From a virus: a stretch of 64,000 nt of DNA. The position numbers were made by a program, and so were the translations under genes. A model generated the notes under the pieces. The model ran no database searches, was not told where the DNA came from, and saw only the letters and a list, made by a program, of their open reading frames with translations. Shown here one piece after another: positions 46 through 36,000 of the stretch. Each line of letters opens with the position of its first letter. Position 1 is the first letter of the stretch. The stretch spans positions 64,001 to 128,000 of the IMG/VR virus record IMGVR_UViG_3300017605_000342; one strand, given 5' to 3'.

Positions 46-831
46 ATGACAACAACGTTAATACAAGGTAGGCATGGTAAATTTCTGGTGCCGGTCAATG
101 ACCAATACGTAGGTCAGTCTCTCTTAGCTTACGGAGAATTTTCCTACCTAGAATTTGAATTGTTTGAAGACCTCATAGAATCAGCGTTCGTAGTAGTAGA
201 GGTTGGGGCAAACATCGGAGCACACACAGTTGGTTTATCCGCTCTTGTCCCTGAGGGATCGGTACTTGCATTCGAGCCTCAGTCGTTTTGTTATGAGTTT
301 CTAGAAACCAATATCAACATCAACTCTATAAGAAACGTAACTACATTCGACGTTGCGTTGGGCAAGTACGCACAACAAATGTACGCACCAACATACTCAC
401 GGGATGCATTTGTTAATTGGGGTGGTATCAGCTTAGGTGCTAGGACTCGTAATAGCGAGGCAGTGTCGGTAGTTCGTGGAAGCAGCTTGGTGCCTTGGGT
501 AGATTTTTTAAAAGTAGATGTGGAGGGGATGGAGCAGGAAGTCCTAGAAGGACTAGAAGAAACTGTTATTAAGGCCAAACCCATTCTTTATATAGAAAAT
601 GATAGACCAGAAAAATCAGCATCGTTAGTAAAATACTGTTGGTCATTAGGATATGGGTTATACTGGCACATACCCCCGTTGTACAACCCAGATAATTTCA
701 ACAAAAATACCTTTAACATGTTTCCAAACATACACTCATTTAATATGGTAGGATTGCCCGTAGGCAAAACAATTAATCTACCGCCCATTACTACCTTGGA
801 GCACCCACTTGAAGCACGCAACCGTCATTAG
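46..831 (+). CDS. FkbM-family SAM methyltransferase
   Basis: VEVGANIGAHT, AFEP, KVDVEGME motifs. Confidence 0.85.
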   Translation: MTTTLIQGRHGKFLVPVNDQYVGQSLLAYGEFSYLEFELFEDLIESAFVVVEVGANIGAHTVGLSALVPEGSVLAFEPQSFCYEFLETNININSIRNVTTFDVALGKYAQQMYAPTYSRDAFVNWGGISLGARTRNSEAVSVVRGSSLVPWVDFLKVDVEGMEQEVLEGLEETVIKAKPILYIENDRPEKSASLVKYCWSLGYGLYWHIPPLYNPDNFNKNTFNMFPNIHSFNMVGLPVGKTINLPPITTLEHPLEARNRH

Positions 832-20124: not shown

Positions 20125-21306
20125 CTAGTTGTCATAAATCGTTACGCCTCTGCGTATATAGATGTTCTCCGTTCCAGGATTGTCAATCGTTATATAAGGG
20201 ATTAAATAAATGTCGGCGCTCATACTAGCTTTACCACTATTACCGATTTGATTATCCCTGATTACGCCACCTTGTGACGGGTTTAAACCACCAGTAGCAA
20301 TACCATAACCAGCGGCGGTTGCTTCTGGATTGTCCTCTCCAACACCAACAGTTCTTGTAGAGCTATATGGAGAATACTGTGTATCAGAACTTCTGTACGC
20401 TCTAATTCTATACGAGTAAATACCGCCGGTCACCACGTTAGTATCTGTAAAGGTTTGAACATCAGCCGCAGTAACAAATAAAGTTTCGAAAGTTCCACTG
20501 GACCCTATTTTACGTTCAATAATATAAGCGGTTTCTGTAGTTGCATTATCAACCCAAATCAATTTTACTTGCGGGTTACCCGACACAAACTCAGCCACGG
20601 CTGATGAGAAAGTCGGAGAAGTGAGATTTGACACCACCAAACTATCGGTGGTTATAGCACCGGAAGCTGCATAAGTAGACTCTCCGTATTGATTGACTGC
20701 TTTAACTCGGTACAAGTAAGAAACATCGTATGACAGCCCAGTATCAGAATATGAAACAGAATCTGCTGGCAGACTAGTTACTGTTCTCCACGTAGCATCA
20801 ACGTTGCTAGATCTCTGTAAAATGAAGTTACTCTCATTGTTAGAATTATCATTCCACAAAAGATCAATAGTGTTTGCAGTCGAGGCCCCAGTCAGGTTAG
20901 ACGGTGGCAACGGTGGTGCCGTATCAGTACCTGGATCTGGCACAGGATCGGGCGTAAAAGCTGGCAATGTAATTTCCGCAATATTAGAATAAGTACTATA
21001 TCCGCCAGCATGTTGATTTCTGACTCGGTATCTATAGACAGTGGAAGGGGTAAGCGTACGGTCATACCCATCCAAAAAATAAGCAAGTCCAGTGCTTGTC
21101 AAAACATACGGGTCCACAAGGTCCGTGGCAAACTCCGTAAAGCCACTACACGCAGCACCTGTACAGAACTCCAAACTGAAGAACACGCTGTTAGCCGTAG
21201 CTCCAGGTTCCCAGACTAAATAAACCACAAGTCTCTGACCAATAGTAAACTGTTTAACAGTGTAGCTTGCTTCTAAATTATTAGGTGGAAAATCTAATAT
21301 ACCCAT
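20125..21306 (-). CDS. Three-FN3-domain protein with beta-helix-like C-terminal segment
   Basis: WNDNSNNE, WVDNATTE, YRVKAVN/YRIRAY FN3 motifs; tail GVIRDNQIGNSG. Confidence 0.8.
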   Translation of the reverse strand: MGILDFPPNNLEASYTVKQFTIGQRLVVYLVWEPGATANSVFFSLEFCTGAACSGFTEFATDLVDPYVLTSTGLAYFLDGYDRTLTPSTVYRYRVRNQHAGGYSTYSNIAEITLPAFTPDPVPDPGTDTAPPLPPSNLTGASTANTIDLLWNDNSNNESNFILQRSSNVDATWRTVTSLPADSVSYSDTGLSYDVSYLYRVKAVNQYGESTYAASGAITTDSLVVSNLTSPTFSSAVAEFVSGNPQVKLIWVDNATTETAYIIERKIGSSGTFETLFVTAADVQTFTDTNVVTGGIYSYRIRAYRSSDTQYSPYSSTRTVGVGEDNPEATAAGYGIATGGLNPSQGGVIRDNQIGNSGKASMSADIYLIPYITIDNPGTENIYIRRGVTIYDN

Positions 21307-21311
21307 ATCAC

Positions 21312-23756
21312 TTAGTCAAATTGTAGAGGATAACCATGTCCATTATTTTTAATCTGATTATCACTAATAATGAAGTCTTTCAAACCATCAATCAAAATAC
21401 CGCTAGCTCCGTTACTGCAAACAACATTGTCTTGTATTGTGACACCCTCAGTAAGCGCTCCTTGTTGAGCCGCTCCCAAAATTCTAATACCATCAGAACC
21501 ATTACGACAGAATATGTTATCCGTGATTGTTAGACGTGCATCCAACCCCGCCGCTAAATCATAGATGTCTTGGTCAAAGGCCATGTCTTTTTCAACGAAC
21601 TCCATGCCATAGTCTGTGAACCAAACAGCGTTACCCATACCAGGTGTAACTAAATCGTCGAGGTTGCCGCACAAACCATCATCAGTTGGTAAAGTACCAA
21701 CAACAGTTCCGGGGATAGACGTTCCGTAGTTATTCGGTTCTGGAGAGGCACCAGTAATCTCCAAAAAGAATCTAGTAACAGCGACGTTTGTATCTGGAGG
21801 AAGTGCACCACAAGCTGCAAAGGCTCTTATTTCGGATGCTGTAAGAGCACGAGCAATCACTGCAACTCTTGCAATCTTACCGTTAAAGGCATGCTGTGGA
21901 GTCAAGCCGTACATGTTTATCCCGATACCACACGCAACTGAGCCGTTAGGTGCTATAGCATGACCACCACTTCTAGTACCAACCAGTTGCACGCTGCCTG
22001 GAGTAAACCCAGCATAAAAATCAGCAATAACAGGAGCACCAGAAAAAGTAATATTAATACAAACAAACAACGGCGTACCAGCCACCAAAAAGTTTGACGG
22101 TGCACCACCAGCAGTTGTAAGTGGAACCTTCAGAGAATAGTCTGTCCAGTTACCTGCCACTAGTGGCTCTGTTGACCAAAATAATTCTAGTTCATTTGAA
22201 GCAGTTATTCGCATAGAATAACCAGAGTCATATCTATTTCCAAGAATCGTCCCTAATACTCCTATACTGGCAGGTTCAATCCACGCGCACTGACAAGAAG
22301 GGTTATTGAATAGTCCCTGCCCAGTTAGTTTAATGTAGTTAGATACAGACCCATCCCACACCCTAGATAACCCAACATCCGCCGGCTCATCCGCTTCAGC
22401 ACCAGTTGCCCCAGTTAGGTCTGAAATATTGTTACCGTCAATAGTAACTTCAGTACTTGCCCAACATGCCGCACCTCTAAAGACACTGCAATTTTTACTG
22501 TAACAGCCAGTAACGTGCACACCGCGACACACATCCAAGTTAATCAAAGCTGTGTCTCTGTCGTTGCTGACGGCGTATTTCAGCGCGGTGTCAAATTTAA
22601 CGTTATCAAAGTTAACATAAGATGAAAAACCTATTTGAAACTTTTCACCAATTCCATGAGCAATTGTTAAATCTTTAACTGTAAGTTTACTTACTTTATA
22701 TGCCCGCAATGCCCACAAAGACTTGGCTTGCTTCGCCGCATCTTCTGTCTCGTCCTCTGTAAATTCTCCGTTAGTGTCATAGATACCTTCTAGGTCGATA
22801 GTACCTGTACCGTCAATGACAATATCATGATCACCAGAATCTATGTCTCCAACAAAAGAGTTTCGTGCTTCCAAAACAGTTATCTGTCCGTTAGGATAGT
22901 TCTGGATTGACGCAAATAATACCCGCAAAGTGCCGTTAACTCTAAAATGTACGCCACTGTCTATCCACAAACAAACCCCAACTGGTCCGTAATATGTTCC
23001 ATCACACAGATCGTCTTCAACAGGTGCAATATTGGCTATCACGCTACTTGGAACAAGAACGCGGGTTCTTCCCGATCCTGCTAAAACGTTTGCTCTCGCT
23101 TGATCCAGTGCTTGTTGGATTTTGGCGGTTTCATCACCAACTCCAGTAACTCCTAAATCTCGTACCACATCAATCCAGTCATCTGTAAAAGGAACAACAT
23201 CTGGGTCACTTTCACTAGGAAAAACAGACTGTGCAATAAACGTAGAAAATTCTCCGAGCGTGTTATAAAACAATGCGCCCAAAGGAATAGGCTCTATTAC
23301 AATAACCGCTTGTGGCACAACAATGGGTGGCGGCGTCGGTGTCGGTGGTATATCCGGTGGTGCAGGAGTGCTGTTTAACACCGTAACAGTTATAGTACTT
23401 GTTGTAAATGTATTACCAGCAAAGTCTGTAACTACCGCAGAAATTGTATGGGGGCCGTTAGTAGTTGTTGCTGTATTCCACGGCAACGAAAAGCTCGATG
23501 AAATCGAAGTTATAGGCCCACCAAGAGGAGCTGAATCTAGATAAAGTTGCACATTGGCCACTCCAACATCGTCGGTGGCAGTACACGTTACTGTAACACT
23601 GCCAGCTAGAGTAGCTCCGTTACTTGGTGCACTGATGGACCCAGTAGGCGCAGTAGTATCAGGAGTGCCACCGCCACCATACTCGTAGGCACCGATATCC
23701 CACGTTGACCCCTGAGGTCTTACAACTCCATCAAAATCTGTAGTAAATAAAGGCAT
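21312..23756 (-). CDS. Mosaic tailspike/adhesin: anchor peptide, Ig-like domain, beta-helix with inserted LamG-like domain
   Basis: DTTAPT..ISAP..G Ig domain; GDETAKIQQALD pectate-lyase-3-like start; I.DN.I..NG rungs; FNGKIARVAVIARALTASEI. Confidence 0.8.
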   Translation of the reverse strand: MPLFTTDFDGVVRPQGSTWDIGAYEYGGGGTPDTTAPTGSISAPSNGATLAGSVTVTCTATDDVGVANVQLYLDSAPLGGPITSISSSFSLPWNTATTTNGPHTISAVVTDFAGNTFTTSTITVTVLNSTPAPPDIPPTPTPPPIVVPQAVIVIEPIPLGALFYNTLGEFSTFIAQSVFPSESDPDVVPFTDDWIDVVRDLGVTGVGDETAKIQQALDQARANVLAGSGRTRVLVPSSVIANIAPVEDDLCDGTYYGPVGVCLWIDSGVHFRVNGTLRVLFASIQNYPNGQITVLEARNSFVGDIDSGDHDIVIDGTGTIDLEGIYDTNGEFTEDETEDAAKQAKSLWALRAYKVSKLTVKDLTIAHGIGEKFQIGFSSYVNFDNVKFDTALKYAVSNDRDTALINLDVCRGVHVTGCYSKNCSVFRGAACWASTEVTIDGNNISDLTGATGAEADEPADVGLSRVWDGSVSNYIKLTGQGLFNNPSCQCAWIEPASIGVLGTILGNRYDSGYSMRITASNELELFWSTEPLVAGNWTDYSLKVPLTTAGGAPSNFLVAGTPLFVCINITFSGAPVIADFYAGFTPGSVQLVGTRSGGHAIAPNGSVACGIGINMYGLTPQHAFNGKIARVAVIARALTASEIRAFAACGALPPDTNVAVTRFFLEITGASPEPNNYGTSIPGTVVGTLPTDDGLCGNLDDLVTPGMGNAVWFTDYGMEFVEKDMAFDQDIYDLAAGLDARLTITDNIFCRNGSDGIRILGAAQQGALTEGVTIQDNVVCSNGASGILIDGLKDFIISDNQIKNNGHGYPLQFD

Positions 23757-23759
23757 CTA

Positions 23760-24149
23760 TTACATCACTCTAAATGTACGATCACTAACATCAAACACAT
23801 CTGGATATTCTACACTACTTAGTTTAAGAATACATGTGCTAGATGATGGTCCTACTACCCACCAGTTTGCACTACCTGAGTTAAAAGTGTTAAATAGAAA
23901 CTGATAACTTGAACCATTATTTCTAGATAATTCAATCTTGATTGTAGAACTTTCTGGTAAGTTTGTAGAATTCCAGTAGAAACTTTTCCAACGTCCAGTC
24001 TTCAAACGTTCTCCACCATTTGGAGAAATAATAGAAATCGTAGGAGTTACAGGTTGCGGGTTATCGAAGATAAATTCTAACGCACCGATGTCCCAAGCAA
24101 CTCCCTGCGGCCTTAAAACACCATCGAAGTCTGTATTGAATAAAGGCAT
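23760..24149 (-). CDS. Anchor peptide plus single Ig-like (SPNGGE-type) domain
   Basis: ISIISPNGGE, IKIELSRNNG, DVSDRTF. Confidence 0.75.
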   Translation of the reverse strand: MPLFNTDFDGVLRPQGVAWDIGALEFIFDNPQPVTPTISIISPNGGERLKTGRWKSFYWNSTNLPESSTIKIELSRNNGSSYQFLFNTFNSGSANWWVVGPSSSTCILKLSSVEYPDVFDVSDRTFRVM

Positions 24150-24163
24150 AAGTTTTCCCTCCG

Positions 24164-25162
24164 TTAGTTAATCACAACCCCTTGGTCGATTGCGTTTGTG
24201 CTTGCGGCAGTCAGGTGGAAATCCCCACCAGCAGCGTTTACAAAGTGTGGGTCTGTGGTCAAGTTATTCGATAAAACCGTTCCTGATCCGTTGTTGGTAA
24301 TACCGCCACTTTGGTACACGATGTTGTTCTTTACCCTAGCTCCTGCACTATCTGCGTTCATGACTATTCCAGTAGGATTGTTGTAGATTGTGTTATTATA
24401 TATCATAGCGTTAGTCGGATTGTTCCAAGCTACTTCTATTCCGCGTGAATTGCCGTAGATCAAGTTGTTATAAACTAAAATGCTATCGCCAGAAGTTACG
24501 ACCACAGCAGCCGCATTACCTCCAGTGCCATTGCTATAGATCCTATTGTTCCTTATAATGTTTCCATCCGTCCGCTCACCATAGCCATTGTAAGTCTGTA
24601 CACCACAGCCAAAGTTAGAGTAGATCGTACATCCATCAACGATGTTGTGTTGACTGCCTAAGTAAAAGCCGTGATCTTGTGGGGTATTGCTTATAGTATT
24701 GTGCCCATTATGGTGTACGATGCAGTCGATAAACTCATTATAACCGTCAGCGGCGTGCGTGCAATGAACCCCTTGACGCTGAGCGTTCTTTATCTCACAC
24801 CCAATAACACGGATATGGTTCACACCACTGTTAATGGCAACAACTTCATCAGATGTGTTTTGACCATCCAGACTTAGGTTCTGAAAAATCACATACTTTA
24901 TATAAGAAGCCGTCATGTTCAGCACGCGCATATTGACTGTTTCTCCAGAATAGGCGGAAATCAGTGGTGCGTTGCTCCAAGACGTTCCGGTAGGAATTGT
25001 TTGAGAGTTGGCATCAATGCTCTCGTTATATGTGCCAGAGCGAATATAGAGCGTATCCCCAGCAACCATTACGCTGATGCCTTTGGCTATAGTTTGGAAA
25101 GGTGATCCGATAGTTCCTGGGTTACTATTATTACCTGTTGTTGCTACGTAGTATATTGCCAT
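24164..25162 (-). CDS. Right-handed beta-helix protein (DUF1565/pectate-lyase-like)
   Basis: YYVATTGNNSNPGT..PFQTI, GDTLYIRSGTY, repeated YNN.IY.N rungs, DPHFVNAAGGDFHL. Confidence 0.85.
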   Translation of the reverse strand: MAIYYVATTGNNSNPGTIGSPFQTIAKGISVMVAGDTLYIRSGTYNESIDANSQTIPTGTSWSNAPLISAYSGETVNMRVLNMTASYIKYVIFQNLSLDGQNTSDEVVAINSGVNHIRVIGCEIKNAQRQGVHCTHAADGYNEFIDCIVHHNGHNTISNTPQDHGFYLGSQHNIVDGCTIYSNFGCGVQTYNGYGERTDGNIIRNNRIYSNGTGGNAAAVVVTSGDSILVYNNLIYGNSRGIEVAWNNPTNAMIYNNTIYNNPTGIVMNADSAGARVKNNIVYQSGGITNNGSGTVLSNNLTTDPHFVNAAGGDFHLTAASTNAIDQGVVIN

Positions 25163-28100
25163 TATTCAGTTTCTCCTACGTTATCGTAAGTAAAATTTAG
25201 TCCTGGGCCATCCTCACTGGCACCTAGAACAATGTCTGAATGATTATAAAAACTCGTACCTACAAACGGAAGACACACTCTCAAGTTCAAATCTACTGTA
25301 TTGATGTTGTGTACTACCAAATTGTAATTAAGAATTGTTGCGGCTGAGACAGCAGCAGGCACTCTTGGAAGATCTACTACCGTAGCAAGAGGCTGCCAAT
25401 CTCCAGTCAACAAATAGTCTTGACGCGAGTAAAAACCATACGGCTGAATAGACTCTCCGGGGGCCGCGTCATCTTTGATGTTCAAACGAACATACAAACC
25501 GTCGTCTGCTGTAACATCAATAGCCCGTATCCAAATAAAGAAAACCGAAACGCCCTTTTGCATAGGAATTTCTGTTTCAAAATTGATAAACCCGCTGTCG
25601 AATATTGTTGCCCCACCTGGTAAAAAAACAGTGGCCCCTTCATACTGGAATCCATCGTTCGTTGGAGTAATGTTATAAGGTCCTGGGTTATCCACACCGA
25701 TTGGTATATACGGAGAAATAGCTGTGCCCACACCACGACTATCAGTGAAGACATTGGAACTCAACGATAGTAAGTTGTTGAATGTTGCAACTAGACCGTA
25801 TACATCACTACTTAGTAAAATTGTTCCGGCAGTAGTGATAGGTAAGTTAGCCTTAAACACTGGGTGTTTAATAGTACCGCCCTTTGCAACAATGCTAGAC
25901 GGGTTACCAGGAATTTCTGGGAATACAATACGGATTCCAGATGAGAACCTAGAATAATTTCCGGCTGCATCATACGCTCGAACAAAACAAATTGTTTCGC
26001 GGCGGCGGGCAATCTTAAATTCGGAGGCAGTTGTTTGTCCGTTTGTAATCGTGTCATAGACTAGGTAGTTGGTGTTGTTCGCATCTCCCCAACCTTGGTC
26101 TGCATACCTAAGCTCGAAGCCACCACCAACAGGTGGTGCTTGACCGATAGAAATTACGAAGTAGTTTGGGTCATCCTCGTCTACAGTAAGACCAGACACA
26201 AAAGTATCTGACGGTACAGAAGTCCATGCTTTTAGACGTAAGTCAACTAGAACATCTATAGCAGTCGCTGGCAACAACTCAGACGTACCACCATATGTCA
26301 GCGTTAGTGTAATTGAATTAAACAGCAATGACAGTGCATTCGTTGTTTCTATGATTTCAGCAAGATCGGCGGCGGTTGGTAACTCTGCCGTATCCGTTGG
26401 AGCAAATGGATTTGGTGGAACTTTCAGGCTAGCCAAGAATTTCTTAACTTGGTCGATCTTACCAAAAGTAACTGTGTGCTTAACAATGTCTTTTGATTTT
26501 GAATCAATCAAAGACTCTACTGAAGTAATAACTTCAGACTGAGACACAGGCAACCCAGCAGGCAAATTTGCAAACCTCAAAATAGTACCAGGACGAGGCA
26601 CACCCGTAAACTCTACAGTACTAAACTGCTCGTAGGTACCCGCATAGTGCTGGTATGAACCTTCGGCAACCAATGCAGCCGCTGCCATTTCGCACTCCAC
26701 AGATGTTCGTGGTAAAGGACTCAAATCTTTTTTGGTAATAGTACGCAACCCGTTGTCACCCCACACTGCTGCTTCTGATGTTATCAAATCAGCATTCTGG
26801 GCACGTCCTATGGCAATGCCGGCACGACGGTAGCGCAACCGCATGATTTGACCTGGTGTGGGTGTGTTGGCAGATAGCTTTGTACTGTCCTTAAAGAATG
26901 TTAGTGTTGCATCTCCTGCGTTATACAGGGTTGATCCTAGAATATTTCCAGAATCTATACGCCCTTGACGTGATGTAATAATGGTAGCAACAGGCCCCAT
27001 ACCATCGTAAGAATCTATTTCATTAGGTCCAACCTGTTTTGGCGTCCATGTTATAGAAGTAAAATCTTCTTCAATAGGAGCACCAGTACCAATATCAAAT
27101 TTGTTACGTTCAGGATACCACAGATCCTTGTCAACAGTTGACAATGACACTTGCATTGGCACACTGATTGTAATGTTTGATAGTGTTATATGCAAGTTGT
27201 TAGAAACTACAGGAACATACGCGGCAAAAAATTGTCCAGCACCTACTCCCGTGTTTGACCCCGCATGTGTCCAAATAGTTTGATTAGTTGTGGGCCTTCC
27301 GGTAGTTGCATCAATCTCTGTAATGATCGTTCTATATACCGGAATATCGGCAACAGTATTACCACCAAAACTACCCAAGGTTCCAGTGATAGTACGAAAC
27401 AGGTATTCCCTGTCGTGCCTGTTTATATTCTGAAAGGTTACTAGTGTGCGTAAAATGTATCTTTTGTTATCAGCTAACGTGCTGACCGTATAGGTATCCG
27501 ACTGCACTACCCCGTTAATGATTGGATGTAAGTCAGTGCCAACTACCTGAATACCAAACACACACCCCGCCATCGAAGAGCTTGGAGTACTTGTCCACAA
27601 TGACGCAATAATACCAGAACCACTATCTGTCACAAAGTCAAACTCTCCGTGAGTTAGACGTAAATTACCTTGCAAAGGAATCAATGCCTTAGATTGTAGG
27701 TACACTCCGTAAGCATCTGCCGCGTTGCCAATAATGTTTAGATACCCGTTGTCCACTCGGATAACGTTGTTAACGGAATCTACTTCAGTCCAAATGTTAC
27801 TATCAACTGCTGCCCCAGAAAAAATGTCATCTAACAACAAGGCACTGTCAACGCCATACACGGAAGAGGCCATCGGAAATGCATTAGTTAAACCGTCACC
27901 TACCCAAAATTCATTCATCAATCCTTGCGGTTCAACGTCTCCCAGCACAATGGCGTCATTAATAACTGGGTCTGTTATTGGACCGATAGACAAACGCCCC
28001 GGCGTGAAGTGTGGATTATGTTTACCTGCCCAGCCTGTGGCAGTACCTGTACCATTGCCCACAGAGTCTGTTAGCGTGAAATTGGACGCACCCACACTTT

Positions 28101-28860
28101 CAATAAACCAATTGCCAACGGCAGCGCTTTTAGTCCCATCAGCAAGTACGTGGTCAGATATGGAAATACAGTCTCCGTTGGCCCGTCCATGTGGTGTCAT
28201 TGTTGTCACAACAATTGGGGTACCACCAGTACTTGAAGCTATTCGCACACGACTACTCTGATCCGAATGCCCATTAATAATTAGTGTTGCGGGCGTTACG
28301 TCTTGTCGCTCGTAGTACAACTTAAAGTCATTTGTCCAGAAACGATAGTACGCGGCTGCTGCAAAGTCTTTGACAATCTGTCCAAAGGTTGTTGTAGGGT
28401 CAACGAAATAATAAGGTACCAACTGCCCGTCTTCGACAGCAGTAACATCAAACTTTCCCGGTGCAATACGGTTAGCCAAGTCTTTAATAATCGCGCCTTG
28501 TGTTTGGTTGATGTACACAGGCAGAATACCTAATGGAGCAAGATTCAAAATATAGCTATCGTCTGTTCCGGTAAAATGCCATGACCAGGTAGGTTGATCG
28601 GTAGGTGAATATTTCCCCACGTACTCTAACTGCGGCGCGTTTGTAACGAAGCCAGTCCAGTAAGTAGGATCTGAGTCAGTACCTAAAACAAAGTAACTAC
28701 CACGACGCGGTAGGACAAATCCACTACCCCACGCAGCCATATCCAAGTCAATCGTTGTAGGTTCGTTGACTGATTGCTTTATGACAGGTGACCCTGTTAA
28801 ATATTTGATGTAATCAATACCGGCCAACGTGGGGTCGGTAGAAGTTAATGTTAGTACCAT
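25162..28860 (-). CDS. Large tail tip/hub protein with C-terminal FN3-like domains
   Basis: 1232 aa, downstream of tape measure; QGAIIKDLANRI hub-like helix; VRAYDAAGNYS. Confidence 0.75.
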   Translation of the reverse strand: MVLTLTSTDPTLAGIDYIKYLTGSPVIKQSVNEPTTIDLDMAAWGSGFVLPRRGSYFVLGTDSDPTYWTGFVTNAPQLEYVGKYSPTDQPTWSWHFTGTDDSYILNLAPLGILPVYINQTQGAIIKDLANRIAPGKFDVTAVEDGQLVPYYFVDPTTTFGQIVKDFAAAAYYRFWTNDFKLYYERQDVTPATLIINGHSDQSSRVRIASSTGGTPIVVTTMTPHGRANGDCISISDHVLADGTKSAAVGNWFIESVGASNFTLTDSVGNGTGTATGWAGKHNPHFTPGRLSIGPITDPVINDAIVLGDVEPQGLMNEFWVGDGLTNAFPMASSVYGVDSALLLDDIFSGAAVDSNIWTEVDSVNNVIRVDNGYLNIIGNAADAYGVYLQSKALIPLQGNLRLTHGEFDFVTDSGSGIIASLWTSTPSSSMAGCVFGIQVVGTDLHPIINGVVQSDTYTVSTLADNKRYILRTLVTFQNINRHDREYLFRTITGTLGSFGGNTVADIPVYRTIITEIDATTGRPTTNQTIWTHAGSNTGVGAGQFFAAYVPVVSNNLHITLSNITISVPMQVSLSTVDKDLWYPERNKFDIGTGAPIEEDFTSITWTPKQVGPNEIDSYDGMGPVATIITSRQGRIDSGNILGSTLYNAGDATLTFFKDSTKLSANTPTPGQIMRLRYRRAGIAIGRAQNADLITSEAAVWGDNGLRTITKKDLSPLPRTSVECEMAAAALVAEGSYQHYAGTYEQFSTVEFTGVPRPGTILRFANLPAGLPVSQSEVITSVESLIDSKSKDIVKHTVTFGKIDQVKKFLASLKVPPNPFAPTDTAELPTAADLAEIIETTNALSLLFNSITLTLTYGGTSELLPATAIDVLVDLRLKAWTSVPSDTFVSGLTVDEDDPNYFVISIGQAPPVGGGFELRYADQGWGDANNTNYLVYDTITNGQTTASEFKIARRRETICFVRAYDAAGNYSRFSSGIRIVFPEIPGNPSSIVAKGGTIKHPVFKANLPITTAGTILLSSDVYGLVATFNNLLSLSSNVFTDSRGVGTAISPYIPIGVDNPGPYNITPTNDGFQYEGATVFLPGGATIFDSGFINFETEIPMQKGVSVFFIWIRAIDVTADDGLYVRLNIKDDAAPGESIQPYGFYSRQDYLLTGDWQPLATVVDLPRVPAAVSAATILNYNLVVHNINTVDLNLRVCLPFVGTSFYNHSDIVLGASEDGPGLNFTYDNVGETE

Positions 28861-29675
28861 TACTTATACGTATATCTTGTAGGTAAATTAAAGACTCTAG
28901 GTTTAAAATTTAAACCATACTTATTCTGCCACTCCCACACTGCACTGACGTGGCGATAAACTTTGTAAAATTCATCGATCTCTCCACGAGAGATGTAGTG
29001 TGTTGCAAACCCTTCAATGCCCTTGCGGTTTTGTGATCCAGTGTGCAAGACTAGCGCACCAACCAAGTCCTTGTACAATCCCATTTCTTCCAGCATTTTT
29101 ACATACGCCGACATCTGCAAAAACGCCGTGTCAGATACGGACTTACCAGACTTAATGTCTACAACGTACAAACCTTCAGGTAAGCTTAGTGGTTTACTGC
29201 CGTTGACTTCGTAAGTACCACTCTTAATACTCACCACTCCGTCAGTAGTACCAGCTTCTCGGTACTTCAGGGAATAAACCATACGCTCGGATTCTAGAAT
29301 AGTAGGTTTTACAACCTTCACAAACTGCACCAGTCTCCAGAATGCTAGCGCCTCGTCTTGGTCTTCTATGAAATATCTAGGCTTGGTGTCTACGACATTT
29401 GGTTCGTTATCATACTGCCCGTCTAGGTTAACAAAGACCTCGCCACCTTTGACGTATGTTTCAAACGCTTTGTGTATACTTGACCCCTTTTGCTGAGACT
29501 CTTTCAGGCGTTTGTCAGCCAACTCGTTACCAATATCACCGCGCCATTTGGCAAGATACGGTGCACCAACAGCGGATAATTTGGTTGTAACTGAGGGTAA
29601 GTAAACCTGACCTTCGCTATCTAAATCAATACGGTAGTAATGCTCGTTATACCATGAAACTTGTTTTACAGTCAA
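28860..29675 (-). CDS. PD-(D/E)xK exonuclease (Cas4/RecB-like phage nuclease)
   Basis: LPSVTTKL, GSSIH, AGTTD, VDIKSG, QMSAY. Confidence 0.85.
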   Translation of the reverse strand: MTVKQVSWYNEHYYRIDLDSEGQVYLPSVTTKLSAVGAPYLAKWRGDIGNELADKRLKESQQKGSSIHKAFETYVKGGEVFVNLDGQYDNEPNVVDTKPRYFIEDQDEALAFWRLVQFVKVVKPTILESERMVYSLKYREAGTTDGVVSIKSGTYEVNGSKPLSLPEGLYVVDIKSGKSVSDTAFLQMSAYVKMLEEMGLYKDLVGALVLHTGSQNRKGIEGFATHYISRGEIDEFYKVYRHVSAVWEWQNKYGLNFKPRVFNLPTRYTYK

Positions 29676-30084: not shown

Positions 30085-33000
30085 TTACGAGTTGTTAAAT
30101 CCAAAACGCGACTGGTCTGCAAAGAACGCAGTCATAGGGTCAATGATCTGGTTTGGAGTGATAGGGGCACCGCCCGTATTAATGTCAATCTTAATTTGTG
30201 GTGCCCCAACGGTTACATTAGTAATGCGTGGGCTGATCTGGCTTTGTAAAGCCGGATCTAGAGAGAAGTTCCCGGTAACCGGATCTCGCTTAATACCATT
30301 GATGATAGCTTGAATGTCCTTCCATTTTTGAATCTGACGATCTAGAGACTGCTCGTCTAACTGGTTCTGACGATCTTTTAGTTTTCCAGTATCTAGTGTA
30401 AGATTAAATATCGATTTTGTTTTTTCAAAAACCTTTTGCTTTGCAGCAATCTCTAGGTTTAACAATCGTATCTGTTCTTGAGTTTCTTTCTGCTTATCTG
30501 CAAAATCTTCACGTAATTTAACTAGAGCATTACCACGTTGAACAACGCCAGCAACACGGGCCTCGATAGCATCAGCAGTTAGTAGTTCAAACTGAGCTTT
30601 GTTAAACTCTTCCTGATCTTTGACCATCTGCTTGATCAGGTCGGAACGTTGTTTGAATAGGTCGTTCAATTCAAGCGCATTTGAAATAGCTTCCTTTTCT
30701 GCATCAACTAGGTCGTCTAGTAGGTCACCCTGAAGCTTCTCCAAAGAACGTGACAAGAACTCTACAGCGTTTTGTTGTTTTTCTAGAGTGAATTCCCCTT
30801 CACGGAATGAGTCAACATATGCCTGAACTTTTTTATTAACATCGTCCCAAGCACTACTAAAATTACGCAGAGCATCATTGCCTAGACGAAGCGCCCCTAG
30901 CTCATCTTCGAAAGAATCTTGGACTTCTTGTTGTTGCTTAATTAAGTCTTTGATAGATCTATCAAATTCAGGTAGTAGCTCTTCTAACTGCTTCTTACCA
31001 CCCTTTTTACCACTCAGACGTTCAATTGCCTGTAGTCGCTGTCTTTCCAACTCCCCGATGGTTCGACCCAAAGTTTCAGACTGATCGCGGAAATTTTCTA
31101 AAGTTTTGTCAAAAGCTTTTTTAATTTTCTCAGCAAGCCGTTTAGCCGCTGCTGTAAACGCTGACGCAATCAAAGACACTACAGCTCCAGCCGCCTGAAC
31201 GATAGGACCACCGGCTCCTAGTGCTTTTTGAAATATGGTTCCTACCTGAGATAATCCGGCACCTACTGCACCACCTATGCCAGCACTTTGGAAACCTTGT
31301 ATGACAGCACTAATTGCGCCTTCTAGTTTATTAACTACAGACAACACTGAGTTACCGAATTTAGATAAACCACTTTCTCTAAGGTGTTCAAAGTCAGATG
31401 TTAGCTTAGCTAGTTCTTCTCTAAGAGGATCTATAACTTCAGGCCCTAACTTAAGCTTACTAGCTTGTTCTATGCTACTCTGGACCTGCGCGATGCGTTC
31501 TCGTAGTACTTCACGTGCCGCATCAACAGCGGTTAGATCCAACCCAGTAACATCTTCTAAAGCACGCTTACCTCTACTTGCCGTTTTTCTACGCTCAGCA
31601 ATACGCTGGTCAATTGCAGCCCGTAGCTCTGCTTGACGCAAAGCCTCAACCGCATTTTTCTGCCGTTCCAATGCCGCAATGTTTCTTAACGCGGGTTCTA
31701 ATGCAGCCTGTTGCTGTTGTAGTCTTTGAAGTTCTACTTCAGCAAGACGCAGCTCTCCGTCAGCAACTAGGTGTGCCCCTTTAGCAAGTTCTACTTGATT
31801 TTTTAATCGCTGATCGTTTGACAGCGTGCCCTGCTCTTGTACGGCTATTAGTTGCTCTAATCCCTGTTGTTCTATTTTAACAAGGTCAATAGAAATAGCT
31901 AGTAGTTCTTGAGCTTCCTTACGACGCTGAATAACTCTGCTTGCAGAGTTAGCATTCATTGCCCTAGTAAAATCTTCGTCCAATTCCTGTTGCTTTCGTT
32001 TAAAATCTCCAGACTTGTCAAAACCTTCTGTATCGCCAGTCAGCGCTTTTTGTGTGTCTTTGGCAATCTGTATTTGACGGTTTAGATCTTCTTGAGCATT
32101 TACTTGACGGCGCAATATCAAAGATTCTTGTGCATCAATAATAGCACTTTCTAATGCAACACCATCTTGAACCTGTAACTGTAGTATCTCCGCATCTGCT
32201 TCTTTTTGCAGTTCTACCCTCTTATCTTGAAACGCAGTTTCAAATGCTAGTTTCTTACCAATCGCTATGCTTAATTGTATCTCTGATAACTGATCCAACC
32301 TTGCTGATTCTCGGCGTAACTTAGCTGCTTGAGTTATCAACTGACGTTGGCGTGGAATACTGTTAGCACTTGCCGTCTTTCTTTCCCGTTCAATATCAGT
32401 GATTTCTTTTTTAATAGCTTCTTGACGTAGTTCTGTAACTTTACTGATTGTTTCGGATTCGTCAACAACACGTACTTTGTTAAATTCTTTGAACAAATCT
32501 TCGGCTTGACGTAAGGCTTCTTTAGTAGCGTCCAAGTCATCTTTAAATTTGTCTTCACGATCTTTACGTAAAATAAGATTTACATCATGACGGGCCTTTA
32601 GCTCAGCTATCTGAGAGTCTTTGATTGCCTTACCTTCAAGCTCGGCTAGTGCATTAGCGCGTTTTTCGGCATCATCTTTAGGCTCTGTTAAACCTGGAAA
32701 TCTTTTTCTTTTCTTTTCAAGTTCTTCGATTTGCTTTTCTAGTTCTTTAAGTTCTGTTTTTGCAGCTACAAGGCTGGCTTCTGTGGCAGCTTTTTCAGCA
32801 TCCGTTGCCCTACTTATGACAAGACTTTGCTTAACTCTTTTTTGAGTAAGCTTTTCGACGGTTTCTCCTAGTTGAATGACACGAATATTAGAACGTTCTA
32901 ACTCATCGTTGAACTTTTGAATGTCATCAACATCCCCGAACAGTCTTTTCTTTTCTGCTCTAATTTCTTCTATTCTATTAAACTGCTCTCTTTGAACGGA

Positions 33001-36000
33001 GTCAATTAATTCCTTAGCTTTTCCTACTTCGTTGAAAACACCCTCACTAAATCTAAGATCTGTAAGCTCACGAATTCTAGCTTCATTGCTTTCTATGCTA
33101 GAAAGAAATAACTGCAAATCCGATTCAATAAGTTCTAGGCGACGACGAACAGCTACTTGCGCATCTGCCAATCCTGTTTCAATTGCTACACCTACACTCT
33201 TACCTAGCTCTTGTGCTTCTTTAGGCAAAGCTCTTTGAGCAGCAACCAACGGGGCCTGCACAGTATTGCGCAAAAGCTCTTTCATACCCACACCACCGCT
33301 GGCAGGGGCTTTTGCAAGCTCTTTGTCAATTTCTGTGATCTTCTTTATAAGCAACTGTCTTGCTTCGAAGATTGGAACAGATCCTTTTATGATTTCTTTC
33401 TTTCTTACTTCAGAAGTTTCTTTTTCTAAAAGTCTGCTCTTTTCTATAATTTGTACATGTGTTTCTTTAAGTTCATCAAGTAATCCTGCACGTTGTGTAG
33501 TCAATTCTTGCAGTGCTTTTTCTGGAAGTTTACTTACCTCTGCTGCTCCCACTATTTGATCCAATGCTTGGTTTACAGCCTTGACAGCGTTAGCCACAGC
33601 AGCCGGACCTATAGTAACTGCACCGATAGCCCCACTACCAGTACCACGGCTCTTTTCCGCAATCTGGCGGTTCAAAGATTCCAGAGCAGTTTCCGCTCTT
33701 TCCGCATTGTCCGCAAGTGATTTGAATGGATTGATGCTTGCGATCTTAAGTAAGATAGAGGCTAAGTCTGTTACTGTAGACAGTAAACTACCAAAGACAG
33801 ATCCTAAAGAAGATGCAAAATTAGTAATAGTGTCTTCGTTTTTTTCGAAAACTTCGATGATACGCTGCAATCCTGAAAGAGAAGCGTCGAACAACCCTTT
33901 AGAGAATGCACCAGAAAATATTTTTAGAAACAGTTCAACTTTGTCTAGAAGTCGTGCAAATATTCTGTCAGATAACTGCAAGCTCTTGGCTTGGTTGCTA
34001 GACAAAGACACCAGCACTTCAAATAGATTGCCTTCTTCTTTAGCTGTTCTGACTATCGCTGCTAGTTCATCGCTTGTTCTCTTCAGTGCACGCGGCAACG
34101 CATCTCGGGCAGTTACACCTTCTGTAAGTAACTTACTGATTTCTGAAACTGTACGTCTGGCATCCTTTAAGGAAATACCAACCGAACCCAAATCCTGAAT
34201 AATAAGCTCTACGGAACCTACAGCCTTCTCGATGTCACCACCAACAGCACGTAAACCACCCGACTGCACAAAGGATTCGAATGCCTGCTGGAAAACTTCG
34301 CTCGACGTGTTTACTCTAGTCGATGCAAGTTCTAGTCGTCTAGTTAGAGCTTCGGCAGCTTCCGTTCCCAACTCAAAGTTAGTAGCAATATCCGCAGAAA
34401 ATCTGACGTTCTGTAGTAAGATTTCTCTTACTTGAATCATACGTTCTTGAAAGTCAATCAAGAATGCCAATCCCTTCTGTATTGCTAATCCAACACCTTC
34501 GATAGGTGCCAAAGCACTACTGATAAGTGGGCCAGCTAATCTCCAAGCCAACTGGAACTTAATAACCGAACCTACCGACTGTCCTATGTTCTTCTCAAAC
34601 CCTTTTAAGATCTCGTTGAAGAACGTTCCTTTAGCGTTTGCTTTATCTTGTTCACGCTGAACTTTACGCAGATCTGTAATCACCGCTGTCATTGATGGTG
34701 GAGGCGGTGTTACAGGGGGCTTAACTGGAATAGGTGGGGTACCCGGAGGCGCACCAGGAGGTGGTGCTAATCCAACACCGGGCGGATGTGCGCGTAGTTG
34801 TGCGATCTCTTTTTCAATCACACGTATGCGCTCTAGTCTCTGTTTTTCAACAGCATCTAGTTGCTTATCGACAGCTTTTGCAGCCAACACTTTTTCAGTA
34901 TTAGCTGAACTGTTAAGAAACTTTATATTGTCGTTAATGAACTGCTGACGCTTAATCTGTTCATCAGCCAATAAAGCTTTCTCTGTGTCTAGTTGTTTTT
35001 CTTTAGATTCTATCTCTCTATTGTGCTGATCTAGTAGTCTTTTTTCTTCTGCTAATCGTTCTTTTCTTAGCTTTGTGGCTTCCTTGTTACTGTCCTTGGA
35101 GATCTTAATAGTTCTCTCTGTTTCGTCAGTAAGTGTTTTAAGCTTCTTCGCACTTAGCTCATTAAATGCTGTTGCTATGTCTTCGTTAGCCTGATCTTGA
35201 GCTTTTTTATTGTCAGAGATAGTCTGTTGAAATGCCGCTTTTTCTTTCTGTGTCTTAGCTTCGTTAGCTTCTAAGGATAATTGTATACCCTTTGCTTCTA
35301 GCTCAGCTTTACGCAACACTAACTTCTCAAAGTCCGGTAGCTGTGCTTCAAAATCCTTAACTTGCTTTTCAAACGTGTCAGTACTTTTAGTAGCTGCGGG
35401 TTTGGGAACAATCTGAAGTTCTTGTAATCTCTTTAGACTACCCGCCTTGTCTATTTCGCTTAGTTTGTTATTTGCAGCAGTAGCTTCTTGCTGGCGACGG
35501 GTACTTAAATCCTTTTCAGCACGTAGCAATTCCTCGTTAAGCGCAATAATATCGGCGTTCGCTCCGCGCTTTCTTAGCTTGCTAGTAGCAATCTCCTGCT
35601 GCTCGGCCTTATCTATGGCGGCGGCGGCTGTTGTAGTTTTGCTTTTTGCATCTGCTTCTGCTGCGTCTCTTATCTTATTAAACTCGACAGAAGCTTGCTT
35701 AGATGCGGCAATAATCTTATTAGGCAACGCCCCCGCAATGCGGTCGAATTGCGTTCCAAAAGACTTCAGCAACCCTAGCTCTTCATTCAGGGTTTTCTGC
35801 AAAGTCGCAACTTCATGCTGACGCGATGCATCGTTCTGAGCTGCTAGCAAATTATCTGCGGCCTTCTCGATGTCAACACGCTTCTGTAAAAAATCCAACT
35901 GCAAAGATTCTAACTTAGCCAAATCCGCCCGAACTTTGTCGGCTTTGGGCAAACCAGTGGGCAGGTCTACAACAGCGGCTTTCAAACCTACAACAGTGTC

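Follow-up and report, generated by a model that had tools for sequence, protein, structure and literature searches.

Gene organization of the tail-tip locus

The window analyzed here, a stretch of 64,000 nucleotides of virus DNA, contains a tail-tip module of a 160-kb uncultured soil siphophage. Five ORFs of 1232, 332, 129, 814, and 393 aa were confirmed on the minus strand at the coordinates and lengths reported in the first-pass annotation, each with its own start and its own stop codon. The stop codon of the 1232-aa gene overlaps the start of the 332-aa gene (TAATG). A GGAGGG Shine–Dalgarno sequence lies 8 nt upstream of the ATG of the 129-aa gene, and the 14-nt spacing between the 332- and 129-aa genes is identical in the related locus L003. 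The 129- and 814-aa genes are in frame with each other, and tandem TAA-TAG stop codons precede the ATG of the 814-aa gene. The breaks between genes consist of 14-nt and 3-nt spacers or one-base overlaps and contain no homing endonuclease gene or mobile element. Introns and inteins at the junctions, of which the first-pass annotation had seen no signature, were rejected at spacer lengths of no more than 14 nt. An inversion-type shufflon was also rejected, because all genes lie on one strand. The coordinates of the features are listed in the table.

Table. Features of the tail-tip locus, by position in the window
Feature	Position	Strand	Basis
Cmod, C-terminal module (~70 aa) of the 393-aa protein	20128..20340	-	Conserved across the family
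Three FN3 domains of the 393-aa protein	20341..21306	-	Pfam fn3; AlphaFold2
Last beta-helix rungs of the core	21315..21641	-	Pfam Beta_helix/NosD, residues 709–808
LamG-like insert (~240 aa) in a core-helix loop	21642..22346	-	Pfam Laminin_G_3, 9.3e-6
First part of the core beta-helix, residues ~150–470 of the 814-aa protein	22347..23309	-	Identity to relatives; AlphaFold2
Complete Big_7 Ig domain, residues 37–107 of the 814-aa protein	23436..23648	-	Pfam Big_7, 2e-13, positions 1–70 of 70
Cap peptide copy 2, first 26 codons of the 814-aa gene	23679..23756	-	NF041518 positions 35–57
Cdom, small C-terminal Ig-like domain of the 129-aa protein	23760..24071	-	tblastn
Cap peptide copy 1, first 26 codons of the 129-aa gene	24072..24149	-	NF041518 positions 36–57
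14-nt spacer between the 332- and 129-aa genes	24150..24163	-	Shine–Dalgarno GGAGGG; sequence read directly; 129-aa gene in another frame
Head, 332-aa right-handed beta-helix enzyme (DUF1565/Pel9A-like)	24164..25162	-	Pfam; alignment to L021
Tail hub/tip protein, 1232 aa (P0001)	25162..28860	-	Identity to Tunturi_4 gp15

Residues 1 to 969 of the hub showed 36 to 40% identity to gp15, a virion structural protein of Tunturiibacter phage Tunturi_4 whose gene comes after the tape measure gene. This distant hub homologue was the only relative in the phage database, and the tail genes downstream of it are unrelated to those of the window; the same database gave no DNA match and no protein match to the 814-aa protein, and an IMG/VR scan with the hub gave no matches. 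Only one relative is in culture, and it infects Acidobacteriota. The comparisons below were made with about seven independent loci of one clade, and every genome among them is an uncultured metagenome assembly.

The cap domain of the head enzyme is divided between genes

The 332-aa head scored above the curated cut-offs of two Pfam models, Beta_helix (PF13229; 3.6e-16, 59.6 bits, cut-off 25.9) and DUF1565 (PF07602; 8.4e-9, 35.6 bits, cut-off 20.3), which places it among the beta-helix/DUF1565 polysaccharide-active enzymes. Through a 58%-identical homologue in locus L040, its first 75 residues could be aligned to two enzymes of solved structure, 3vst and 5olq, and its N-terminus matches residue 2 of 3vst, a GH120 xylosidase, indicating that the 5′ boundary of the gene is natural. 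The C-terminus stops inside the choice-of-anchor-Q cap, at about position 34 of the 58-position NF041518 model, without the final DIGAYE-type segment. The 23 residues missing from this cap form the start of both the 129-aa and the 814-aa genes, in which residues 5 to 26 (24 bits) and residues 4 to 26 (33.5 bits), respectively, match the end of the model (cut-off 25 bits). A complete NF041518 domain on one chain was accordingly not found in the window, where the domain is spread over genes, and the fused 413-aa relative in L040 matches positions 10 to 57 at 63.8 bits.

The alignment of the two pieces onto single-chain homologues is contiguous and colinear. Residues 202 to 332 of the head align to residues 308 to 458 of the single-chain homologue L021, in which the motif follows directly, and cap copy 1 aligns to residues 457 to 482 of the same protein. 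The cap motif is internal in all 23 of the other viral loci, 260 to 1200 aa inside one ORF. From these alignments, the 332|129 and 129|814 boundaries were confirmed to share a single split domain. Of the earlier claim that three of the four gene boundaries cut through a domain, what stands is one split domain touching two of the four boundaries, not three split domains.

Cap copy 1 is one arm of a 68-nt direct repeat with 78% identity, and its pN/pS is 0.17 to 0.22 at a pS of 0.65 to 0.73. The remainder of the 129-aa protein, Cdom, is what the non-core tail genes in the relatives have in common at their C-terminal ends; tblastn placed it at the ends of the 1031-, 340-, and 129-aa proteins of L003, the 240-aa protein of L040, the 138-aa protein of L049, the 1046-, 340-, and 133-aa proteins of L054, and the 127-aa protein of L055. 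Every split locus has an extra tail gene of the Cdom type, and neither of the unsplit loci (L043 and L045) has one. The name Kre9_KNH-like for this domain is an Atlas lead only, of fairly high score.

The first part of the core helix in the 814-aa protein is present in every relative (50 to 82% identity to the 411-aa protein of L045, the 482-aa protein of L040, the 729-aa protein of L003, and the 811-aa protein of L043). In the AlphaFold2 model of the whole protein, built from seven sequences, core-helix residues 190 to 450 reached a pLDDT of 70 to 90, and the model was poor outside the core helix. A Foldseek search with this model returned the HK620 tailspike, GH28 enzymes, and AlgE epimerases, a generic beta-helix/tailspike match. 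The LamG-like insert is absent from L040, L045, and L043, and the hub protein of L054 contains a copy with 45% identity to it. The 814-aa protein ends just past an NNG rung motif, and the same ending is kept in seven relatives.

Fused forms and a second cut site in relatives

Homologues carrying the two halves in one ORF, for which the first-pass annotation had advised a search, exist not only among the 23 other viral loci but also within the compared relatives. In L043, the head, cap, and core form a single 811-aa ORF corresponding to the 332-aa plus 814-aa proteins, and in the 421- and 413-aa proteins of L040 the head and cap are fused.

A second cut was observed in the relatives at one fixed position in Big_7, after the fourth strand. 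It was seen in four independent assemblies (L003, L040/L041, L049, and L059), and the LGG codons at the cut double as the GGAGG ribosome site of the next gene. Loci cut in Big_7 contain one or two heads that end in the N-terminal half and two tails that start with the C-terminal half; genes of 480 to 730 aa starting with the Ig C-half are intact in four assemblies. The number of partners varies. A single head is accompanied by two cap-led genes in the window and by three in each of L003 and L054, and L040 has two N-half and two C-half genes.

An 83-aa gene consisting only of the cap and a half-Ig recurs in two contigs with the same length, 75% identity, and a pN/pS of 0.24, a sign of purifying selection. 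In L059, this cap-led gene lies directly after the hub with no head gene between them, and in L055 a cap-led gene occurs in a non-tail context, so the cap is not always found beside a capless head. The core protein of L045 lacks the cap peptide and occupies the same place in the tail locus. An IMG/VR pattern scan for cap-led starts retrieved only the L003 contig, and an IMG/VR scan for the Ig junction gave no matches.

Within these genes, conservation is highest in the half-domains. Cap copy 2 of the 814-aa protein shows 85% identity to its L054 orthologue compared with 54 to 59% for the rest of the protein, the C-terminus of the head 81% compared with 66% for the head body, and the cap plus half-Ig of L040 86% compared with 53% for the head body. 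The pN/pS of the half-domains was 0.10 to 0.22 at a pS of 0.65 to 0.8, and the flanking ORFs are long and intact (pN/pS 0.1 to 0.4). Because the half-domains are the best conserved and the synonymous sites are saturated, selection acts on the protein.

The hub and the 393-aa protein

It had been proposed that an FN3-like domain of the hub is completed by the 814-aa protein, which would plug into the tail hub through FN3 strands. This split was not supported, since the Big_7 domain of the 814-aa protein is already complete; furthermore, the hub C-terminus is conserved in L045, whose homologue of this protein lacks the N-terminal 150 aa. The hub C-terminus is kept in L003, L043, L045, L054, and L059 regardless of the next gene, including L059, where the downstream partner differs. 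Nothing was found in favor of the FN3-strand plug, and the 814-aa protein, said to carry a half of all three split domains, has a proven half of one only.

The FN3 part of the 393-aa protein was modeled by AlphaFold2 as three beta-sandwiches with a pLDDT of 80 to 90, and Cmod folded alone reached only 30 to 40. Cmod is the sole part common to all family members (166 to 644 aa) and is always C-terminal, and in the relatives the gene upstream of a Cmod protein has beta-helix rungs at its end in every case. Searches of Pfam, NCBIfam, and PDB gave no relative of Cmod. An exhaustive HMMER search of 1.84 billion representatives (15 hits) yielded no fused 814/393 homologue; the eight hits inspected were FN3-array proteins with Cmod at the extreme C-terminus and not behind beta-helix rungs. 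When the last 70 aa were compared with the core rungs by hhalign, a weak likeness to one beta-helix rung was obtained over 16 columns, at a probability of 21%. Across the relatives, the 814- and 393-aa genes are a conserved pair, with the 393-aa gene a constant partner gene of the core, and Cmod is a candidate dock for the end of the core helix. The earlier proposal that the 393-aa protein caps the 814-aa protein is plausible, based on the conserved neighbor pair and on Cmod being unfolded alone in AlphaFold2.

Alternative explanations for the divided domains

Phage tail genes are highly mosaic, and the cap and half-Ig leaders could be recombination scars, by-products of module shuffling carried by proteins that fold and work, or idle, alone. 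The loci differ by whole cassettes flanked by repeated cap-coding 5′ ends, the LamG cassette belongs to the core helix in the window and to the hub protein in L054, and the cap-led gene of L055 lies away from any head. Scars should decay, however, whereas the halves are instead the best-conserved segments at saturated synonymous sites. Neither half of an Ig domain divided into four and three strands is able to fold, yet the C-half genes are intact, and the 83-aa gene made of two halves has been kept at its 75% identity. We consider an origin as scars unlikely. In Klebsiella KP32-type and CBA120-type systems, short conserved N-terminal peptides anchor secondary receptor-binding proteins, and by this precedent the cap peptide could dock the 129- and 814-aa proteins to the virion, for example to the hub, leaving the head independent. 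The conservation of the hub C-terminal tail in all relatives and the headless arrangement of L059 would fit such an anchor. Against it, the peptide keeps the exact cap-domain consensus and is contiguous with the head in fused relatives, the C-terminal half of the head is conserved in parallel, and the L045 core stands in the same tail-locus place without the peptide, so that a virion anchor appears improbable.

Translational joining of the genes by frameshift, bypass, or read-through into fused virion proteins is very improbable, even though just 14 nt separate the 332-aa gene from the 129-aa gene, which is in a different frame, and the 129- and 814-aa genes are in frame with only TAA-TAG between them. 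The 332|129 spacer has no slippery heptamer, and a TAA six codons before the ATG blocks the downstream frame and leaves a two-codon window. The spacer nucleotides differ among the window, L003, and L054, and a ribosome-binding site and ATG are kept in each. In L040, a head ending in half-Ig precedes another head, where a fusion would be senseless, and two tandem stops stand before the 814-aa gene. We give equally little credence to assembly or sequencing errors, or to a defective genome with decaying pseudogenes. Every source is a metagenome assembly, and L059 has 3.4x coverage and an Ig-C/Cdom gene that looks frameshifted into 75- and 50-aa pieces, but these junctions were seen again across independent samples and assemblers (JGI, ENA, and Logan) at 55 to 82% protein identity, a start codon with a ribosome site is found at every junction, and the flanking ORFs are long and under constraint at the pN/pS given above.

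Proposed assembly of the receptor-binding apparatus

The relatives in which the domain is whole or cut elsewhere suggest that these tail proteins probably snap together via rebuilt split domains. Judged from the gene sequences, it is probable that receptor-binding modules are joined noncovalently, one to many, by reconstitution of a domain in trans. The linkage of adjacent tail genes by a split domain, as first proposed, has strong comparative support for the beta-helix cap, and the detailed adaptor model is not supported in its original form. The locus would encode the receptor-binding and depolymerase apparatus of a long-tailed phage in modular form, each module being a separate polypeptide. 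The capless 332-aa head would be captured, per copy, by one of two tails, either the 129-aa protein (cap plus small Ig-like domain) or the 814-aa protein (cap, Big_7 Ig, proline linker, and second, core beta-helix), a one-to-many join that is impossible for a fused gene. The halves would bind each other in the virion, with the core protein as the putative virion-anchored piece. The 393-aa protein may dock through Cmod, which is the weaker part of the model.

The cut in Big_7 would give the relatives a second connector of the same logic, and the 83-aa protein would bridge head and tail. We lean toward the wider reading that this soil-phage clade uses two natural split-domain connectors, one cut in the beta-helix cap before the last segment and one cut in an Ig domain between four strands and three, with combinable heads and tails and an 83-aa adaptor made of half of each.

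If the halves reassemble, these phages obtain host-recognition parts that are branched and exchangeable and need no dedicated docking domains, by a route in which an existing domain is cut and its downstream half is copied onto new modules. Structural biologists would gain a natural case of virion assembly by fragment complementation, and phage engineers two small, apparently orthogonal connectors of about 25 and 45 residues with which depolymerases or binding domains could be attached to a tail. Annotators of metagenomic phages should also not take every tail gene that looks truncated for a pseudogene.

Comparison with known systems

A literature search returned no description of split-domain joins in tail proteins. 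The closest single-chain counterparts are the choice-of-anchor-Q/DUF1565 proteins (NF041518, PF07602, and PF13229). Like them, the head has beta-helix repeats and a DUF1565 N-terminus, and the head and cap peptide together reproduce their C-terminal domain; unlike in these proteins, the domain is not on one chain here. In chaperone-usher pili, pilins lacking a single strand polymerize head to tail by donor-strand complementation. The similarity lies in an incomplete Ig-like fold completed by strands of another polypeptide, whereas the Ig here is cut into roughly four strands plus three, with the halves on unlike proteins, and the Ig of the window itself is whole, its cut lying in the beta-helix cap.

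Branched receptor-binding complexes are known from the TSP1-4 tailspikes of CBA120, gp63.1/gp66 of G7C, and the anchor-branch depolymerases of Klebsiella KP32-type phages. They share with the present locus tandem receptor-binding/depolymerase genes with swappable modules and a conserved N-terminal segment on the secondary proteins, represented here by the cap that heads two genes. They dock through a complete domain dedicated to that role (T4 gp10-like or XD), for which no Pfam/PHROG match was found in any of the five proteins, whereas the proposed dock here is the unfinished catalytic beta-helix end of the partner, or a half-Ig.

Genes in pieces have precedents in the ribonucleotide reductase of Aeromonas phage Aeh1, which is split by a homing endonuclease gene, and in the split DNA polymerase and topoisomerase genes of T4-like phages. 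As in those cases, a sequence that is contiguous in relatives occurs as two adjacent ORFs whose products are expected to reassemble. The present case differs in that no mobile endonuclease lies at the break in this locus, the cut divides a small structural domain in a virion protein rather than an enzyme subunit, the downstream half is carried by two or three genes in a one-to-many arrangement, and two different cut sites occur within one clade.

The Five ORFs Lie in a Tail-Tip Module

The first-pass annotation had placed ORFs of 1232, 332, 129, 814, and 393 aa in the window, and all five were present, on the minus strand, at exactly those coordinates. The source record is a 160,874-bp linear IMG/VR viral contig with an estimated completeness of 77%, of which the window covers bases 64001–128000. 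Upstream of the five lies a 2467-aa ORF of tape-measure size, which had no match in Pfam or PHROG; a tape-measure role would imply a tail of unusual length. Downstream are a conserved small-gene set, an exonuclease, and a dNMP kinase. The 1232-aa protein (the hub) was 36–40% identical over residues 1–969 to gp15, a virion structural protein of Tunturiibacter phage Tunturi_4 whose gene lies directly 3′ of the tape measure gene, and the 119-aa gene upstream in the window matched Tunturi_4 gp14 at 49%. The phage collection searched contained no closer cultured relative, and the relatives compared here (L numbers) form a small clade of uncultured viral contigs. The five ORFs make up a tail-tip module; the phage is long-tailed and comes from metagenomes of soil type.

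A 271-aa PD-(D/E)xK-type exonuclease gene (phrog_298, 5e-31) separates the tape-measure region from the hub. At this position in L045 and Tunturi_4, a small 119–135-aa gene adjoins the hub with nothing between, and the exonuclease gene has the look of a cassette inserted there. The analysis detected no distal-tail-protein family.

Coordinates of features in the window and in related contigs
Feature	Sequence	Position	Strand	Remark
Five tail ORFs	window	20125–28860	−	
2467-aa ORF	window	30085–37488	−	tape-measure position; L045 counterpart 2448 aa
Exonuclease gene	window	28860–29675	−	
Hub end	window	25162–25300	−	
LamG-like insert	window	21642–22346	−	
LamG-like copy	L054	~70–765		within hub protein
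340-aa gene	L003	5605–6627		
340-aa gene	L054	6419–7441		
Cap-Cdom gene	L055	167–550		
IgC-Cdom gene	L059	983–1398		

The Cap Domain Is Divided among Three Genes

The 332-aa protein (the head) is a right-handed β-helix enzyme of the DUF1565/Pel9A-like kind. Its N terminus falls at residue 2 of the solved GH120 xylosidase 3vst, and it ends directly after a conserved A-I-D-x-G segment. The 129- and 814-aa proteins both open with a peptide of 26 residues (the cap) that closes on a DIGAYE-type motif and matches positions 36–57 and 35–57, respectively, of the curated 58-position model NF041518 (choice-of-anchor Q); the fused relative L040 413 carries positions 10–57 on a single chain. In BLASTP, the last part of the 332-aa protein and the first part of the 129-aa protein aligned contiguously to single-chain proteins: on L021, residues 202–332 of the former fell on 308–458 and residues 1–26 of the latter on 457–482, and the placement on L037 and L008 agreed. 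The motif lay 260–1200 residues inside one ORF in 23 other motif-bearing IMG/VR loci; only in the window and L003 did it stand six residues from a start codon. The 332|129 junction consists of TAA, 14 nt containing GGAGGG, and an ATG in a different frame, and the 129|814 junction reads TAA-TAG-ATG. The split domain proposed earlier for these boundaries was borne out by the model match, the contiguous mapping, and the internal motif elsewhere, and homologs with both halves on one ORF, suggested as a check, were found (L021, L037, L008, L040 413, and the 811-aa ORF of L043). As judged from sequence comparison, the two junctions are a true split domain; the family model suggests the structural role of the cap.

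A Second Cut Site and the Gene Orders of Relatives

Module maps were drawn by tblastn and by reading of ORFs. The core is the β-helix of the 814-aa protein; IgN and IgC are the halves of its Big_7 Ig domain, Cdom is a small C-terminal Ig-like domain, and Cmod is the C-terminal module of the 393-aa protein.

Gene order following the hub
Locus	Genes
Window	head / cap-Cdom / cap-Ig-core / FN3-Cmod
L003, L054	head / cap-Ig-LamG-FN3-Cdom / truncated head-Ig-Cdom / cap-Cdom / cap-Ig-core / FN3-Cmod
L043	head-cap-core (single 811-aa ORF) / FN3-Cmod
L045	core only / FN3-Cmod
L040/L041	head-cap-IgN / head-cap-IgN / IgC-FN3-Cdom / IgC-core / FN3-Cmod
L049	head-cap-IgN / IgC-Cdom / IgC-core / FN3-Cmod
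L059	cap-IgN (83 aa) / IgC-Cdom / IgC-core / FN3-Cmod

The cap-Ig-core gene is whole in L054 and comes as 83-aa (cap-IgN) and 729-aa (IgC-core) pieces in L003. This second cut, within the Big_7 Ig domain, falls after L-G-G-P-x-T at the identical residue in all four assemblies having it; the LGG codons form a GGAGG positioned for the ATG of the next gene, and the stop codon usually overlaps the start codon (TAATG). One combined alignment covers every fused and split form. Both splits are derived, since the outgroups are unbroken.

A conserved 340-aa gene of L003 and L054, absent from the window, joins the first ~76 residues of a head β-helix to a whole Big_7 Ig and Cdom, a third mosaic kind. 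L055, a contig of 3 kb, has a cap-Cdom gene whose product shares 63% identity with the 129-aa protein; the genes around it are small and unrelated, and no head or hub gene was visible nearby. The IgC-Cdom gene of L059 (contig coverage 3.4x) is in two pieces, ORFs of 75 and 50 aa. A frameshift from sequencing is the probable cause, which sets this break apart from the clean domain splits.

The Hub and 814|393 Junctions

The proposal that the 814-aa protein completes an FN3 domain of the hub was unsupported: the head gene begins at the natural N terminus of its fold, the 814-aa protein has a whole Big_7 domain, and the hub C terminus is kept in L045 and L059, where the protein that follows lacks the relevant region or differs in it. 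The last hub domain gave an Atlas lead to CBM_4_9 (score 0.85), which is a lead only. The last ~20 hub residues form a tail conserved in L003, L043, L045, L054, and L059 whatever gene comes next, and this tail is a candidate for docking the core protein.

The final ~70 residues of the 393-aa protein (Cmod) are the sole segment common to a family of FN3-array proteins of 166–644 aa, always at the extreme C terminus, and in the relatives examined the gene upstream always ends in β-helix rungs with the same terminal motif. Folded alone, the 393-aa protein gave pLDDT 80–90 for three FN3 domains and 30–40 for Cmod; the low value fits a partner-requiring segment, but a shallow alignment could yield the same. 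The split domain proposed at 814|393 is no more than a possibility. Cmod resembled a helix rung weakly (16 columns at probability 21%), and no protein among 1.84 billion representatives carried Cmod after a helix on one chain. The two genes are a conserved pair whose proteins probably interact.

In the 814-aa protein, a LamG-like insert of 240 aa lies within the core helix; L040, L043, and L045 have core proteins without it. Three FN3-Cmod proteins, those of L045 (P0008), L049, and L054, carry weaker LamG inserts. The 240-aa insert looks like an in-frame domain cassette moving between tail proteins.

Conservation of the Halves and Alternative Readings

By Nei–Gojobori counts, cap peptides of paralogs and orthologs showed pN/pS 0.10–0.26 at pS 0.6–0.9. 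Identity between the 814-aa protein and L054 566 was 85% in the cap, 59% in the Ig, and 54% in the core; between the 332-aa protein and L003 329 it was 81% in the last 37 residues and 66% in the body; and between the two L040 heads, 53% in the body and 86% in the cap and half-Ig (pS 0.68). Synonymous sites were saturated in these comparisons, so the conservation reflects protein-level selection and is no product of a recent gene conversion or of DNA homology that was preserved. L003 and L059 share an 83-aa gene that encodes solely the cap peptide plus IgN, at equal length, 75% identity, and pN/pS 0.24 (cap part, 0.10). When an Ig-like sandwich is divided behind its fourth strand, each of its two sheets is made up from both halves, and neither half is expected to fold alone; intact IgC-led genes of 480–730 aa are therefore hard to explain without a partner. 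In the tblastn maps, one or more additional Cdom-type tail genes accompanied the core in all split loci and in neither of the two unsplit ones. On the simplest reading, the cut would come where a single head has to serve several tails, with the multiplied halves acting as plugs.

Assembly error, which the first-pass annotation had named as a refutation, is excluded by recurrence of the junctions across independent samples and assemblers. Joining of the pieces in translation by recoding is unlikely: the junctions lack a slippery site, the downstream frame has a stop six codons ahead of its ATG, the spacers are not conserved, and an IgN-ending head of L040 precedes another head. Recombination scars fit the mosaicism, as with the LamG cassette found in the core helix in the window and, at 45% identity, in the hub of L054, but leave the conservation pattern and the 83-aa gene unexplained. 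That the cap peptide instead anchors to another tail part seems improbable to us.

Comparison with Known Systems

In the full-text literature searched, no description turned up of split domains joining tail proteins. Three known concepts come closest: phage genes-in-pieces, branched receptor-binding complexes with N-terminal anchors, and the donor-strand complementation of pili. This locus differs from all three in having neither a mobile element at the break nor a dedicated docking domain, in the multiplication of the downstream half across several genes, and in the presence of two cut sites within one clade.
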